Source: a virus
Lineage: Duplodnaviria > Heunggongvirae > Uroviricota > Caudoviricetes
Reading direction: 5' to 3' (one strand)
IMG/VR virus record: IMGVR_UViG_3300042360_000330
Length of the DNA: 64,000 nt
Shown: in pieces, positions 32,868-57,145 of the stretch
Numbering within the stretch: position 1 is the stretch's first letter
Layout: each line of letters begins with the position of its first letter
Notes under the pieces: model-generated
Told to the model about the DNA's origin: nothing
The model's input: only the letters and a program-made list of their open reading frames with translations
The model's database searches: none
Program-made: the position numbers and the translations under genes

Positions 32868-32893
32868 AAAGGCTTGCTTATGCAGGCCTTTAT
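32868..32893 (+). terminator. terminator hairpin AAAGGCTTGC-tta-TGCAGGCCTTT followed by promoter box TTCGTATATTTAC
   Basis: 10-bp stem + T-rich tail; first copy of the recurrent AAAGGCTTG...GAGCCTTT hairpin family. Confidence 0.6.
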
Positions 32894-32908
32894 TCGTATA
32901 TTTACATT

Positions 32909-33559
32909 ATGAAAATAGTATTAGAAAAAGGACAACAATTGTTCTTCACATCAGACACACATTACTCACACTCGAACATTTGTAGTGCTACTACAAACTG
33001 GTCAGTGAATGATGGGTATGCTCGTAAATTTGATTCATTACAAGATATGAACCAAAGACTAGTTGATAACATTAACAACATGGTCGGAGAAGATGATATC
33101 TTAATCCACTTAGGAGACTGGTCATTTGGAGGATTTGATAAGATTGAAGAATTCAGAAGTCAAATCAACTGTAAAAACATTCACTTGACATTTGGAAACC
33201 ACGATCACCACATTGAAAGAAACAAAGAAGGAGTACAGAGATTATTTTCCTCAGTACAGCAATACTTGAGATTAGAAGTAAGAAGACCGATCAACAAAGC
33301 AACAACTGAAAAGTTTACTTTTGTTTGTATGCACTATCCAATTGCGTCATGGCATGATATGAACCAAGGAGTAATTCACTTGCATGGACACGTTCATTTA
33401 CCGTCAGATATAAGAGTAGCAGATGGTAAAGCAATGGATGTTGGAGTAGATGGAAATGGTTTAGAGCCAATTTCATTAGACGAGGTATTATCGTTGATGG
33501 AAAAACAGCCAATAAGAAAGTTAGAGTTGCCAAAGGATCATCATGAAAAGAGAATATAA
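32909..33559 (+). CDS. calcineurin-like metallophosphoesterase (candidate polynucleotide 2',3'-phosphatase of a tRNA-repair system)
   Basis: 216 aa; motifs FFTSDTHYSH, HLGDWSFGG, FGNHDHH, LHGHVHLP. Confidence 0.75.
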   Translation: MKIVLEKGQQLFFTSDTHYSHSNICSATTNWSVNDGYARKFDSLQDMNQRLVDNINNMVGEDDILIHLGDWSFGGFDKIEEFRSQINCKNIHLTFGNHDHHIERNKEGVQRLFSSVQQYLRLEVRRPINKATTEKFTFVCMHYPIASWHDMNQGVIHLHGHVHLPSDIRVADGKAMDVGVDGNGLEPISLDEVLSLMEKQPIRKLELPKDHHEKRI

Positions 33560-33946
33560 ATGAAAGAGTTATTTTTATTAAGAGGATTACCTGGATCAGG
33601 TAAATCAACATTAGCAAAGTCCTTAGGAGGTTCACATATGGAAGCTGATAAGTATTTCGAATACGAAGGTAAGTACGAATTTGATGCATCCAAATTAAAA
33701 GAAGCTCATGCTTGGTGTCAATTCATTGTAGAGGAAGAAATGAATTATTTAAAAGAAGAAAGAATCGTAGTATCAAACACATTCACTCAGGAATGGGAAA
33801 TGCAACCATACTACGATCTAGCAGAAAAGTACGGATACAGAGTTTACTCTTTGATTGTAGAAAATAGACATGGAGGAGTAAATGAGCATGGAGTACCAGA
33901 AGAAAAGTTAGTACAAATGAAAAATAGATTTGAAGTAAAGTTATGA
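33560..33946 (+). CDS. P-loop kinase (polynucleotide 5'-kinase-like, AAA_33 family)
   Basis: 128 aa; Walker A LLRGLPGSGKSTLAKSL; ATGA overlap with the phosphoesterase gene. Confidence 0.7.
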   Translation: MKELFLLRGLPGSGKSTLAKSLGGSHMEADKYFEYEGKYEFDASKLKEAHAWCQFIVEEEMNYLKEERIVVSNTFTQEWEMQPYYDLAEKYGYRVYSLIVENRHGGVNEHGVPEEKLVQMKNRFEVKL

Positions 33947-34054
33947 AAAAAGAATGCAAACATGACTTCAGAGAATTTTGGAAAATAAACTATCGAGGGA
34001 CAAGGTTAGTATTAAAAGAAGTTAAATGTATTATGTGTAACAAAATTAAAGAAA

Positions 34055-35179
34055 ATGGAAAATCAAAATAGTGTTTGCTTTGTAGCAACAATCAAAGAAG
34101 TAAAAGCAATTCCAAATGCTGACAACATCGAACAAGTAGTTGTTGGAGGATGGAATGCTATCACTAAAAAAGGTGAATTTAAAGAAGGTGACTTAACAGT
34201 TATTGCAACTACGGATGCAGTAATTCCAGAAGCATTTTCTGAAAAAATGGGAGTTACTTCTTATCTAAGAAAAGGAGGCAGAGTAAGAACTGTAAAATTA
34301 AGAGGAGTTTATTCTGAATGTTTAATCATTCCAATGACTTATATACAGGGAGTTAAACGTGTAGAAGGTGCAGACTGTATGGAGATGTTAGGTATTACTA
34401 AATACGAACCACCAGTTAAACAAATTCAACTTGCTTCAGGTAGAAAGATTAAATGGAGAGACAATCAGAACTTCCATATCTATTACAAATTCCCAAACCT
34501 TAAAAACGTAGCAGGAATGTTTACGGAAGAGGATATGGTTCAAATCACTAGAAAGATTCATGGTACAAATGCTAGATATGGTATTGTAAAAAAATCTAAA
34601 TTATCATTCTGGGATAAAGTAAAAAAATTCTTTAGACTAGCTGATGAGTGGATTGACTATGAATACATTTACGGTTCACATAACTGTGAAAAAGGATCTG
34701 ACTCTCAAGGATTCTATTCAACTGATGTTTGGAGAACAATTGCTGAAAAATATAGTATTAAAGAAAAACTTTGGGACCTATGTGATATTCTTGGAACTTA
34801 TCATGTAGGTGATGGAATTATTCTTTACGGAGAAATTTATGGAGCCGGTATTCAAAAGAACTATGAATATGGTTTGAAAGATATTGAGTTCGTAGGATTT
34901 GATTTAAAAATGGATAACGAATATCTCTCAACAGATTCAGCTCAATATGAAATAATCAATATGTTACACTTACCTCACGTAGAAGTACTTTACGAAGGAA
35001 AATGGGATCAAGAAATTCAAGATGAGTACACATTTGGACACTTCATCCCAGGAACTAGAGTACCACATGAAGGACTTGTAATCAAACATATCACAGGTGA
35101 TAGAAAGAAAGTAGCTAAAGTAATCAACCCAGATTATTTAATCTACGGAGAAAAACATGATGTAGGAGATTCTCATTAA
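34055..35179 (+). CDS. RNA ligase, Rnl2-like (T4 RnlB family)
   Basis: 374 aa; nucleotidyltransferase motif I KIHGTNARYG identical in form to T4 Rnl2 K35 motif KIHGTN; motif IV/V-like ILYGEIYGAGIQKNYEYG. Confidence 0.7.
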   Translation: MENQNSVCFVATIKEVKAIPNADNIEQVVVGGWNAITKKGEFKEGDLTVIATTDAVIPEAFSEKMGVTSYLRKGGRVRTVKLRGVYSECLIIPMTYIQGVKRVEGADCMEMLGITKYEPPVKQIQLASGRKIKWRDNQNFHIYYKFPNLKNVAGMFTEEDMVQITRKIHGTNARYGIVKKSKLSFWDKVKKFFRLADEWIDYEYIYGSHNCEKGSDSQGFYSTDVWRTIAEKYSIKEKLWDLCDILGTYHVGDGIILYGEIYGAGIQKNYEYGLKDIEFVGFDLKMDNEYLSTDSAQYEIINMLHLPHVEVLYEGKWDQEIQDEYTFGHFIPGTRVPHEGLVIKHITGDRKKVAKVINPDYLIYGEKHDVGDSH

Positions 35180-35190
35180 AATAATTTACT

Positions 35191-35216
35191 AAAGGCTTGG
35201 TTTTCCGAGCCTTTCT
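35191..35216 (+). terminator. terminator hairpin AAAGGCTTGG-tttt-CCGAGCCTTT
   Basis: 10-bp stem, followed by promoter box GTAATTTTACAAAAGATTTAAAAAA. Confidence 0.6.
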
Positions 35217-35249
35217 TTGTAATTTTACAAAAGATTTAAAAAACAATCA

Positions 35250-35615
35250 ATGATACCAGGAGCACAACCAAAAGTATTAGTAAAACTAAATGATAGTAAC
35301 GAACTTGTATTAGATGAACAGTTTCTTACATTATTTGAAAAAGAAGTAATGTCACATAACTATAAATTAGTAAGAGAAAGAGATCAACTAACTAAAACAT
35401 CAGTAGGAATAAAATGGTTAGAGTTTGATGAAGAAGGAAGATACAAAGCAGACTTTAAAGACATTGCTGTTGGAAGAAGTTTATTAATGTCTCCATTCGG
35501 ACCTTCATTCACTTGGCAAACAACACCAGTAACAGAGATTGTAGAACAAAGAGAAGATTATATTAAATTTAATACAGAAAATTCTGTATATGAATTGTTT
35601 GTTTTATCAAAATAA
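35250..35615 (+). CDS. hypothetical protein
   Basis: 121 aa ORF. Confidence 0.5.
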   Translation: MIPGAQPKVLVKLNDSNELVLDEQFLTLFEKEVMSHNYKLVRERDQLTKTSVGIKWLEFDEEGRYKADFKDIAVGRSLLMSPFGPSFTWQTTPVTEIVEQREDYIKFNTENSVYELFVLSK

Positions 35616-35652
35616 ATTTCGTATATTTAGATATTAATTTAAAGTAAAGGTT

Positions 35653-55998: not shown

Positions 55999-56063
55999 AT
56001 TTGGTTGCCTAAAATATTATTCGTACTTTTATATCAAAGTTTAACAATTAAAATATTCTTATT

Positions 56064-56363
56064 ATGAGTGAAAAAATTAACAGCGACTGTTTATTCCGCC
56101 TTGAGGCGAAAGGTGAAGACATTAGTGCTTCAGTTGAAGGTAAAGCTAGAGATATAGCAGAATTACTTGCTAACGCAGCTATAAATTCAGAAGAAATAAA
56201 CATGGTTTTAAAATTTGCTATGTTAATGTTGGCTCAACATGAAATGAACCAAGACGAAGACGAAGACGAAGACCGAATCAGCGAAGAAAGATTCCAAGCT
56301 GGTAAAGAAGCTGCTGTTGACTTAGCTCAGGCATTATTCCCTCTTAAAATGGAGGAAGCATAA
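56064..56363 (+). CDS. acidic hypothetical protein
   Basis: 99 aa; NQDEDEDEDRISEE. Confidence 0.45.
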   Translation: MSEKINSDCLFRLEAKGEDISASVEGKARDIAELLANAAINSEEINMVLKFAMLMLAQHEMNQDEDEDEDRISEERFQAGKEAAVDLAQALFPLKMEEA

Positions 56364-56399
56364 GATTTCTCATTATTTATTGTTTTTAATTAGTGAATT

Positions 56400-56425
56400 G
56401 ACTCATCAGAAATGGTGAGTCTTTT
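56400..56425 (+). terminator. terminator GACTCATC-agaaa-GGTGAGTC + TTTT
   Basis: 8-bp stem including G-U pairs, T-run. Confidence 0.5.
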
Positions 56426-56437
56426 CTATTTATCATC

Positions 56438-56656
56438 ATGAAAAAGTTTATATTATATTTGATCACATGGGTAGCAGGCAATCTGTCTATTCCATTCTGG
56501 ATGGTAGGGCACGTCCACCTGACAACTAATGTGTATGAGGACATACATGAGATAATTGCCTCATTCGGGATGAACATTATAGTGGCCCTTGGGTTCTGGC
56601 TAGAATGGAAAAACTACGATGCGGCTACTAAGCCAAATAACGATAAAGACAATTAA
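56438..56656 (+). CDS. small membrane protein
   Basis: 72 aa, two TM helices. Confidence 0.45.
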   Translation: MKKFILYLITWVAGNLSIPFWMVGHVHLTTNVYEDIHEIIASFGMNIIVALGFWLEWKNYDAATKPNNDKDN

Positions 56657-56712
56657 ATAATACTTGGTTATACGGTTTATAGTTTGTAATTTTATAGCAT
56701 AATTTAAAACAA

Positions 56713-56889
56713 CAAATAAAATGAGCACATTAAAATTTACAGACGGAGAAACATTTGATTTATCAGGTGAATTAAGAGCCGAAGAGCGTTATGATGGATG
56801 GTACGTGTTAGGTGAAAACCGAATGATACCTGTTAACGACGAGTTTGATGCTTTAAACACAATAGATAAACTTAACGCCCTTAAATAAG
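56713..56889 (+). CDS. small hypothetical protein (58 aa)
   Basis: ATG 14 nt after promoter box 56684..56711; below ORF-track cutoff. Confidence 0.35.
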
Positions 56890-57075
56890 ATGAATAAGTT
56901 ACTACTTAGATATAAAAATGAAAACAACAAGCAAGTAGACGTTGTAATGGATCCCAGAGAGCTATCCCATATGGAGTTTATTAAGGGGAACAGAACGTTA
57001 TATAAGGTATATGATGCTGAAGATGAGTTTAATGTTGAATTAGAACGTCTAACTAAATTAAGTAACAGTAATTAA
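56890..57075 (+). CDS. small hypothetical protein
   Basis: 61 aa ORF. Confidence 0.35.
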   Translation: MNKLLLRYKNENNKQVDVVMDPRELSHMEFIKGNRTLYKVYDAEDEFNVELERLTKLSNSN

Positions 57076-57145
57076 AAGTAGACGTGTATACGCTACTTAC
57101 CGTTCGTAATTTTATAGCATAGTTTAACAATTAAAAACATATAAA

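Follow-up and report, generated by a model that had tools for sequence, protein, structure and literature searches.

The 64,000-nt stretch of virus record IMGVR_UViG_3300042360_000330 (the window, meaning this whole stretch) carries a family of repeats in which a conserved box, accompanied in some copies by a hairpin, leads into a start codon. We propose that these repeats are probably composite promoter/terminator/leader cassettes of a T4-like, Immutovirus-related Flavobacterium phage. Each comprises a -33 TTG, a 20-nt spacer, a -7 box TAnnTTTA that usually follows TTCG, and an A/U-rich leader of 18-32 nt. All 24 copies are intergenic and on the plus strand, the single orientation that characterises the promoters of the promoter-early stem-loop (PeSL) cassettes of T4-like phages, and we conclude that they are the Bacteroidota counterpart of PeSL rather than a new kind of element. 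Among public phage genomes, only those of Immutovirus, a group of Flavobacterium phages that includes vB_FspM_immuto_2-6A (160 kb; hereafter immuto), showed nucleotide similarity to the window. The Flavobacterium host of immuto, the nearest relative, agrees with the Bacteroidota host clade put forward in an initial annotation made from the sequence. That annotation had also read the repeats as terminator-promoter-start cassettes, which our analysis supports, with termination and promoter activity as predicted properties.

Anatomy of the cassettes

The 29-nt box TTCGTAATTTTATAGCATAATTTAAAACA (variant A) was found in six plus-strand copies with at most 3 mismatches, three of them identical (40375, 45572, 49782, 51433, 55060 and 56683), and in two more with 4 mismatches (47770 and 57103), which accounts for the eight near-identical boxes of the initial annotation; shuffled sequence contained no copy with at most 3 mismatches. 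Two related forms are variant B, GTAATTTTACAAAAGATTTAAA, with three exact copies and one with 3 mismatches, and variant C, TTCGTATATTTAG-like, with two exact copies, three with 1 mismatch and two more intergenic sites with 2 mismatches. The resulting number of variant sites, about 11, is close to the "more than 10" given before. The pattern TYGTAnnTTTA matches 27 times on the two strands together, and alignment of all 20 matches that are intergenic and on the plus strand revealed an element that had been overlooked, a TTG located exactly 20 nt upstream of the -7 TA in 18 of the 20. The complete pattern TTG-N20-TAnnTTTA occurs 27 times, compared to 3.9 ± 1.9 in shuffled sequences, and 24 of these matches are on the plus strand. 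The 24 cassettes considered here are those plus-strand matches without the two that are intragenic, together with two sites whose -33 is degenerate. The -7 box has its TA and TTT at each of the 20 aligned sites and in each of the 27 pattern hits, while the dinucleotide between them is AT, TA, TC, CC or CT and never contains G, as in TAHHTTTG, the -7 consensus of F. johnsoniae, where the -33 element is weak (PMC6847099).

In Flavobacterium, the -7 box covers positions -12 to -5, transcription starts 4-5 nt later and the -33 element is TTG or TTTG (PMC6847099; PMC9723704). The strongest promoter class of F. psychrophilum, SM2, combines a -33 TTTG box with a C+A-rich 3' extension (PMC9723704). 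The resemblance of TAnnTTTA to a Bacteroidota -7 element, pointed out in the initial annotation, is strengthened by the rigidly placed TTG. By analogy with these mapped promoters, transcription would start 4-5 nt after the box. At 17 sites the ATG lies 18-32 nt behind the end of the -7 box, implying 5' untranslated regions of about 13-28 nt, compared to a median of 24 nt in the host (PMC9723704). Measured from the end of the 29-nt box, the distance to the start codon is 1-15 nt and mostly 7-15 nt, not the 10-20 nt originally given. A sigma-70 promoter scan, uninformative for this phylum, returned 100 hits for 104 expected.

At two further sites (7381 and 32909) the ATG stands exactly 4 nt after the -7 box, hence at the predicted +1, and leaderless mRNAs are predicted there. 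The genes concerned encode the sliding clamp (-7 box to ATG at 7369-7383) and a metallophosphoesterase (-7 box to ATG at 32897-32911), and in immuto the start codon likewise follows the -7 box by 3-4 nt at 16396, 20705 and 52372. The position of these two window ATGs and three immuto start codons indicates that the -7 function resides in the first TAnnTTTA. A second TAATTTAA inside the box was considered for this role and rejected: the TTG keeps its 20-nt distance from the first TAnnTTTA at 18 of 20 sites, the two window ATGs follow that first element, and the offset of the second varies between lineages.

The cassettes, and a gene segment lying between two of them, are listed below.

7346..7383, plus strand: promoter TTG-N20-TATATTTA; ATG 4 nt after the -7 box; sliding clamp (PHROG 223 processivity factor)
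28182..28212, plus strand: promoter TTGGATACCTAAAA..TATATTTA; downstream small ORF at 28269 uncertain
28490..28520, plus strand: promoter, variant B-like, 38 nt before the first gene of a 24-tRNA array
30794..30824, plus strand: promoter within the tRNA array, after the HNH gene and before tRNA-Cys
32868..32911, plus strand: cassette; hairpin 32868-32891 in the spacer; TTG 32874; -7 box 32897-32904; ATG 32909, 4 nt after the box (leaderless-type); metallophosphoesterase gene
35191..35252, plus strand: cassette downstream of the RNA ligase gene; hairpin 35191-35214; TTG 35197; -7 box 35220-35227; variant B leader; ATG 35250
35599..35655, plus strand: promoter (TTCGTATATTTAG variant) and leader; ATG 35653, cREC_REC protein
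38046..38102, plus strand: promoter (TATATTTA variant) and leader; ATG 38100
40350..40414, plus strand: cassette; spacer hairpin; -7 box 40379-40386; variant A box; AAAGGTTATG start at 40412
43096..43151, plus strand: promoter, variant B leader; ATG 43149 of a previously unlisted 30-codon hydrophobic ORF (43149-43241)
43787..43845, plus strand: promoter, variant B leader; ATG 43843, DUF932 gene; variant A at the orthologue in L006 and L007
45553..45610, plus strand: cassette; hairpin GGAGGGGC/GCCCCTTC at 45554-45575; -7 box 45576-45583; variant A; ATG 45608
47745..47809, plus strand: cassette; hairpin 47745-47768 with loop CTAACG; -7 box TATCTTTA at 47774-47781; variant A-like; ATG 47807
47810..49781, plus strand: four-gene segment between two direct box copies, including a CCA-adding/poly(A) polymerase-family gene; absent from L007
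49763..49823, plus strand: promoter, exact variant A box; ATG 49821, ATP-dependent DNA ligase
51414..51471, plus strand: promoter, exact variant A box; start 51463 or, likelier, 51469
53889..53966, plus strand: promoter TTG-N20-TAATTTTA; degenerate variant A leader; ATG 53964
54399..54429, plus strand: promoter TTCGTACCTTTA, then TGGGGGGGTCCG-T10 and no ORF
54484..54542, plus strand: promoter TTTGTATATTTA and leader; ATG 54540
55041..55106, plus strand: promoter, variant A box; ATG 55104; hairpin (GAGTCGTAAAGACTC) just upstream of the -33
55383..55440, plus strand: promoter TTCGTACCTTTA with TAG in place of the -33 TTG; ATG 55438; hairpin and T-run (AGCGCTTAGGCGCT-T7) upstream
56001..56066, plus strand: promoter TTCGTACTTTTA and leader; ATG 56064
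56664..56723, plus strand: promoter, variant A box (1 mismatch); ATG 56721
57084..57148, plus strand: promoter with GTG for TTG, variant A-like; ATG 57146; weak hairpin, not significant
57898..57949, plus strand: promoter TTCGTATATTTAG and leader; ATG 57947

The extent first assigned to the family (32868-57130) holds for most of it, with 20 of the 24 cassettes located between 32.8 and 58 kb, and has to be widened to take in the sites at 7346, 28182, 28490, 30794 and 57898.

Some of these sites bear on gene starts. The ORF listed behind the 51414 promoter starts at 51463 (ATGGTTATG), and the ATG at 51469 is the likelier start, for it lies in the GGTTATG context of the family and is spaced from the box as usual. 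The ORF at 43149-43241 (MKRDYTKAIVWIGLALITIAIWTTIYNLIF), which begins 22 nt behind the promoter of its cassette, is probably a real gene for a small membrane protein. At 54399-54460 a good promoter (TTG-N20-TACCTTTA) is followed immediately by TGGGGGGGTCCG and its T10 run, an arrangement that could serve as an attenuator or decoy, or yield a very short transcript.

The 29-nt box itself can be decomposed into TTCG with the -7 box, about 5 nt around the predicted start site, and about 12 first transcribed nucleotides, ATAATTTAAAACA; its 3' two-thirds are thus predicted to be transcribed leader rather than promoter, a distinction missing from the initial annotation. The segment ATAATTTAAAACA holds the TAAAA motif, reported as a Flavobacterium ribosome-binding signal (Chen 2007, as cited in PMC2483708). 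Over the 108 called genes, TAAAA lies within 20 nt of the start in 56, A makes up 63-70% of positions -13 to -9 and 75% of position -6, and a purine occupies -3 in 81%. Positive translation determinants in F. johnsoniae are A-3, A-6, A-12 and A-13 (Baez 2019, PMC6847099). The A-rich, non-Shine-Dalgarno start context described initially fits this Kozak-like pattern, and we read AAAGGTTATG as such a context and not as a Shine-Dalgarno sequence. No Shine-Dalgarno sequence closes the cassettes, which end in an A-rich leader and the start codon. A recurrent RGTT-ATG accompanies this pattern: as part of it, G stands in place of A at -3 in 31% of genes, GTT directly precedes ATG in 30 of the 108 genes (and in 8 of the 35 outside the cassette region), and the hexamer GTTATG is found 58 times on the plus and 10 times on the minus strand.

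Four hairpins with a common stem had been noted in the initial annotation. All four exist, yet only those at 35191 and 47745 have exactly the stem AAAGGCTTG..GAGCCTTT; at 32868 the right arm is GCAGGCCTTT with one G.U pair, and at 40350 the end reads ...GAGCCTTC. Their folding energies range from -13 to -18 kcal/mol (z -4.5 to -5.4). At 45554, the same position within the cassette is taken by a fifth hairpin, whose GGGGC/GCCCC stem is unrelated (all five: ΔG -13 to -18, z -3.9 to -5.4). In these five cassettes the hairpin fills the 20-nt spacer, its 3' arm ending just before TTCG and its 5' arm AAAGGCTTG closing with the -33 TTG; this placement inside the promoter, with a shared TTG, had also gone unnoticed. 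In two more cassettes (55041 and 55383) a hairpin stands just upstream of the -33.

We compared 11 homologous hairpin copies, taken from the window, from immuto and from two relatives in IMG/VR. Base-pair cells are paired in 98% of cases and compensatory double changes affect three pairs, a degree of covariation reached by none of 500 shuffles. The CTTG of the left arm is invariant and its partners vary through G.U pairs, which would be A.C mismatches on the other strand. This indicates that the structure is selected in the plus-strand transcript and that the TTG is constrained twice, as promoter element and as stem, which explains why the four stems share their sequence. Since the predicted start site lies downstream of the hairpin, the latter belongs to the 3' end of the upstream transcript, and we infer that it terminates transcription of the upstream gene. 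A generic terminator scan accepted three of the five hairpins.

A related compaction was seen in Flavobacterium phage 11b (L088), an unrelated siphovirus, where a G/C hairpin and T-run directly abut the -7 box (…GGGGTTTTTTTG-TATCTTTG; sites e.g. 4918, 12618, 21103 and 28700) and the box has the canonical G. Fusion of terminator and promoter may be general in Flavobacteriia phages.

On this basis, we propose that a Bacteroidota primary-sigma promoter (-33 TTG, rigid 20-nt spacer, -7 TAnnTTTA, usually extended upstream by TTCG) would be recognised by host sigma-A, that transcription would begin 4-5 nt past the -7 box, and that the rest of the 29-nt box would serve as start-site region and short unstructured A/U-rich leader standing in for a Shine-Dalgarno sequence, with TAAAA or an A-run at about -9 to -13, A at -6, a purine at -3 and often RGTT-ATG. 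Five cassettes would in addition pack the terminator of the upstream gene into the spacer, its 5' arm holding the TTG and its T-rich tail overlapping TTCG and the -7 box. Each cassette would then close one small transcription unit and open the next within about 65 nt, and the near-identical direct copies could act as homology patches for the gain, loss and exchange of gene modules between related phages.

Conservation in relatives and likeness to PeSL cassettes

The same architecture was found in relatives of the window phage. In immuto, we counted 35 TTG-N20-TAnnTTTA sites on the plus strand, which cluster at 60-76 kb ahead of small hypothetical ORFs; about 20 of them have a downstream box proper to that phage, GGTATCAATAATTAAAACA, and several have spacer hairpins. 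A further 55 sites were counted in 80 DpdA-linked loci and 136 in 70 loci linked to the family-B DNA polymerase (PolB), and the exact window box is present in three IMG/VR contigs. The architecture is thus conserved family-wide, while the sequence after the -7 box is lineage-specific. The -33 of immuto (TTGCT) was also considered as a MotA-like box; this was set aside, the host -33 accounting for the motif and no MotA or AsiA being found among the scanned proteins.

One recombination junction was seen directly. In the close relative L007, the hairpin and spacer of the 47745 cassette are fused, inside the box, to the leader and gene (49821) of the 49782 cassette; L007 lacks the four genes at 47810-49781, and the crossover lies within the box. 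In addition, the hairpin with the CTAACG loop precedes three different genes in the window, in L006 and in L007.

PeSL cassettes have been described in the phage groups RB49/phi1, T4/PST and KVP40/nt-1 (Arbiol 2010, PMC2839356; Comeau 2014, PMC4122927). In the intergenic spaces that they occupy, a strong early promoter of the host type is combined with a stem-loop that terminates transcription and with the start of the following gene; they cluster in hyperplastic regions made up of small ORFans, act as recombination linkers, and have promoter and terminator activity and mini-circles demonstrated by experiment (PMC2839356; PMC4122927). The stem-loop lies most often between the two promoter elements (PMC2839356). 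Our cassettes resemble them in several respects: they belong to a T4-like myovirus, join an intergenic promoter to a translation start, in five copies with a putative terminator stem-loop between the promoter elements, populate a hyperplastic ORFan region and, in the one junction seen, bound a deletion in a close relative. Even the nt-1 stems, A3-4G3..C3T3-4 (PMC4122927), resemble AAAGGC..GCCTTT here. The genome type is that of a T4-type myovirus, judging from the immuto annotation (T4-type gp20 portal, gp23 capsid, sheath and baseplate) and from the PolB, gp45-like clamp and gp44/62-like clamp loader of the window. Furthermore, genes with immuto homologues number only 11 of about 64 in the cassette-rich part (32.8-58 kb) compared to 19 of 26 at 8.8-28 kb, which identifies the former as a hyperplastic region of the PeSL type.

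The differences concern the signals themselves. PeSL promoters read TTGACA-N17-TATAAT, whereas here TTG and TAnnTTTA are separated by 20 nt; an A-rich leader replaces the Shine-Dalgarno sequence; a clear stem-loop is present in only 5 of 24 cassettes; breakpoint enrichment over ordinary gene junctions is not demonstrable; and the functions of the cassettes are predictions, where those of PeSL are experimental findings. The literature searched yielded no previous account of cassettes of this kind in phages of Bacteroidota.

The promoter part agrees with the sigma-ABfr promoters of Bacteroidota (SM2, PMC9723704; F. johnsoniae, PMC6847099) in its TA and TTT, the lack of G in the middle, the -33 TTG, a 5' untranslated region in the host range and, for SM2, a C+A-rich extension after the box (PMC9723704); TTCGTA also occurs in one host promoter (PMC9723704). 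It differs by ending in A instead of G, by a far more rigid -33 and spacer, and by 17 downstream nucleotides repeated almost verbatim. The start context shares the A-rich -9 to -13, A at -6 and purine at -3 of Kozak-like initiation in Flavobacterium, but the recurrent RGTT-ATG is a string described neither in PMC6847099 nor in PMC2483708.

T4 early promoters are many near-consensus copies of a promoter for host sigma, placed ahead of small genes for host takeover and with conserved positions beyond the core elements. The cassettes are comparable in placing many near-consensus host-type promoters before small genes and in their conservation outside the two core elements; they differ in host phylum and consensus, and their early timing is a prediction. 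The gene set at the cassettes is typical of pre-replicative functions and suggests such timing. Products encoded behind them are the metallophosphoesterase, cREC_REC, DUF932, the DNA ligase and many ORFans, and the genes for RNA ligase, an SPFH protein and the CCA/poly(A)-polymerase-family protein adjoin cassettes or stand between them.

These comparisons suggest that architecture, and not sequence, is what T4-like phages conserve, and carry the PeSL concept into a phylum whose promoters and ribosome binding follow a completely different logic. They provide a reusable promoter/leader/terminator grammar, carried by about 150 metagenomic loci, for the large, abundant and poorly annotated group of T4-like Flavobacteriia phages of aquatic habitats. 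This grammar improves the annotation of gene starts and operons in that phage family, and the cassettes are candidate strong promoters and leaders for Flavobacterium genetic tools, where E. coli signals fail.

Alternative readings, box variants and the terminal A

Several observations weigh against the cassette reading. We infer start sites, termination and timing alike. The 17 nt after the -7 box are nearly identical between copies, beyond what a promoter or an A-rich leader strictly needs, and the -7 box ends in A at every site, where G is "nearly invariant" in F. johnsoniae (PMC6847099). As for the terminators, the T-tracts after the hairpins are interrupted (TTTCTTTG, TTCATTCG) except at 47745 (T6), a generic terminator scan of the window showed no enrichment (8 found, 4.7 expected), and the hairpin is convincing in only 5 of 24 cassettes, being absent or weak in the others. 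Finally, similarity breakpoints with respect to three relatives fall near cassettes in 11 of 44 cases, compared to about 8% expected by length, but they are not enriched at cassettes over gene junctions in general (8/33 vs 18/93); for this reason we claim a role in gene shuffling for specific cases only.

The near-identity after the -7 box could mean that these 17 nt (TAGCATAATTTAAAACA) are an operator or an RNA site for a phage regulator, acting in early shut-off or as a RegA-like translational repressor. Three identical and five nearly identical copies, across a stretch that promoters normally leave unconstrained, would fit such a site, as would the multi-copy version proper to each phage lineage, expected from co-evolution with a lineage-specific binding protein. 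The SELEX site of T4 RegA reportedly contains GUUAUG, which we take only as a lead. However, Pfam and PHROG scans of 40 window proteins, most small ORFs lying outside the scan, gave no RegA, MotA, AsiA or repressor hit. The stretch moreover decomposes into host-type signals, with TAAAA and an A-run suitably spaced; relative to the -7 box it is offset by 4 nt here and by 7 nt in immuto, which is more easily reconciled with a leader than with a DNA site held at a set position to the polymerase; and GTT-ATG is also found outside the cassette region. We therefore consider a regulator site rather unlikely. The idea that the repeats are selfish or neutral, such as miniature mobile elements or recent duplications devoid of regulatory role, might be drawn from identical copies of 28-31 nt spread over 17 kb and joining in recombination. 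It can hardly be maintained given their single orientation, their intergenic location and their fixed short distance to a start codon; identity ends sharply at functional elements with the TTG-to-TTCG spacer free to vary, terminal inverted repeats and target duplications are lacking, and the architecture is retained in relatives with another box sequence.

The invariant terminal A of the -7 box, together with the rigid spacer and the TTCG extension, would be accounted for if the promoters were read by a phage-encoded or phage-modified sigma factor and not by plain host sigma-A, host promoters having a weak -33 and a near-invariant G. In the window, TTG-N20-TAnnTTTG has no hit (2.1 expected), as opposed to the 27 of the A form. 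We counted TAHHTTTN in noncoding DNA at most 70 nt upstream of genes, where coding DNA gives a background of about 2:1 (A vs G) at the box end:

Window: A 22, G 0
Immuto: A 81, G 0
Flavobacterium phage 11b: A 3, G 10
Cellulophaga phage phi18:1: A 8, G 6
Flavobacterium phage FCL-2: A 7, G 3
Cellulophaga phage phiST (first 50 kb): A 15, G 4

The host baseline, obtained by counting three -7 octamers in the transcription start site table of F. psychrophilum, is G 184 vs A 82. Some of the A-ending boxes in that table, TAnnTTTA included, are annotated sigma-A promoters, so that A can be read by the host enzyme, though as a minority form. The strongest host class also carries a -33 TTTG, a sigma-like gene was not found among the scanned proteins, and dozens of small ORFans in a hyperplastic region follow the cassettes, as in the T4-type early class, which is read by host polymerase (PMC2839356). 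A phage sigma factor is, on balance, improbable, and we retain host sigma-A as the likely reader of the cassettes.

The exclusive A at -5 could alternatively reflect DNA hypermodification. In immuto every G is replaced by 7-(formylamino)methyl-7-deazaguanine (fdPreQ1), and Cellulophaga phage phiST is fully 7-deazaguanine-substituted (PMC10516641). The closest relatives of the window phage (L093, L104, L133 and L140) encode QueE, FolE, QueC and a divergent DpdA 5-10 kb to the left of the position of the window start, and its DNA is probably 7-deazaguanine-modified like that of immuto. A modified G might misfit the sigma pocket that reads the unwound -5 base, leading these phages to rewrite the position; phiST has mostly TATCTTTA with a -33 TTG at 20 nt, and the unmodified phage 11b has TATATTTG. 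This view is weakened by the G retained in the -33 TTG and in TTCG, by FCL-2, whose annotation has no deazaguanine-pathway genes and which has TAATTTTA-type boxes, and by the existence of host promoters with A; the comparison moreover spans only two modified and three unmodified lineages. After the mixed results for the FCL-2 and phi18:1 controls we hold such an adaptation to be a long shot. The replacement of G by A in a lineage with fully modified guanines poses a testable question on how host sigma reads hypermodified DNA.

T4-like phages have three promoter classes, and the initial annotation had suggested that the three box variants may define temporal promoter classes; these would be early, middle and late ones, each read by a different form of RNA polymerase. 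The variants are indeed discrete and repeated (8 copies of A, 4 of B and about 7 of C), and C-type promoters stand ahead of the tRNA array. The -33 TTG, the 20-nt spacer and the -7 box are however identical in all of them, and only 8 nt at the predicted start site distinguish A from B (TAGCATAA vs CAAAAGAT). At the orthologous DUF932 promoter, the window has B where the close relatives L006 and L007 have A, and the orthologue of the 40350 cassette in L007 has yet another variant. These swaps indicate that variants travel with cassettes and not with genes.

The late class of immuto appears to use a separate motif, MTATTTATAW, which precedes structural genes and has no -33. It occurs there 27 times on the plus strand and twice on the minus strand; 24 of the plus-strand copies stand 10-42 nt ahead of the following called start, in many cases that of a structural gene (e.g. 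120596, 131295, 146992, 149171 and 153827 in immuto, L001-L004). The motif probably marks a late promoter class. The window, which lacks a structural module, has five copies (8120, 13261, 25973, 31579 and 61879) and no enrichment. Taken together, these observations make a temporal meaning of the variants doubtful. The sequence TATTTATA is the reverse complement of the T4 late box TATAAATA.

The window phage and neighbouring features

The window has 30% G+C and essentially all of its long ORFs are on the plus strand. Besides the replication proteins mentioned above, it encodes GroES/GroEL and many glycosyltransferases, and its PolB has counterparts of 98-99% identity in IMG/VR contigs. Hsp20, GroES and GroEL are encoded consecutively at 8205-10794. 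The polymerase at 4768-7353 is of family B (T4 gp43-like), whereas immuto has a family-A enzyme at 37898-40231; the flanking GroES/GroEL genes are conserved between the two, an instance of DNA polymerase swapping.

The tRNA array comprises 24 genes (28558-32839) interrupted by the HNH endonuclease ORF at 30277-30783, and is served by the cassette-type promoters at 28490 and 30794. Twenty of its tRNAs reach the Rfam gathering score; the Rfam scan found tRNAs only, the cassettes matching none of its known RNA families.

A noncoding stretch of higher G+C lies at the GC-skew maximum (53006-54368) and is 88% conserved with L007. It contains AAAACGTACGACGG in three direct copies, with one inverted copy of 28 nt (89%) 1276 nt away, and two copies of TTTTTTTGTTGCTTAAAG. 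This stretch may be a replication origin or a regulator-binding region.

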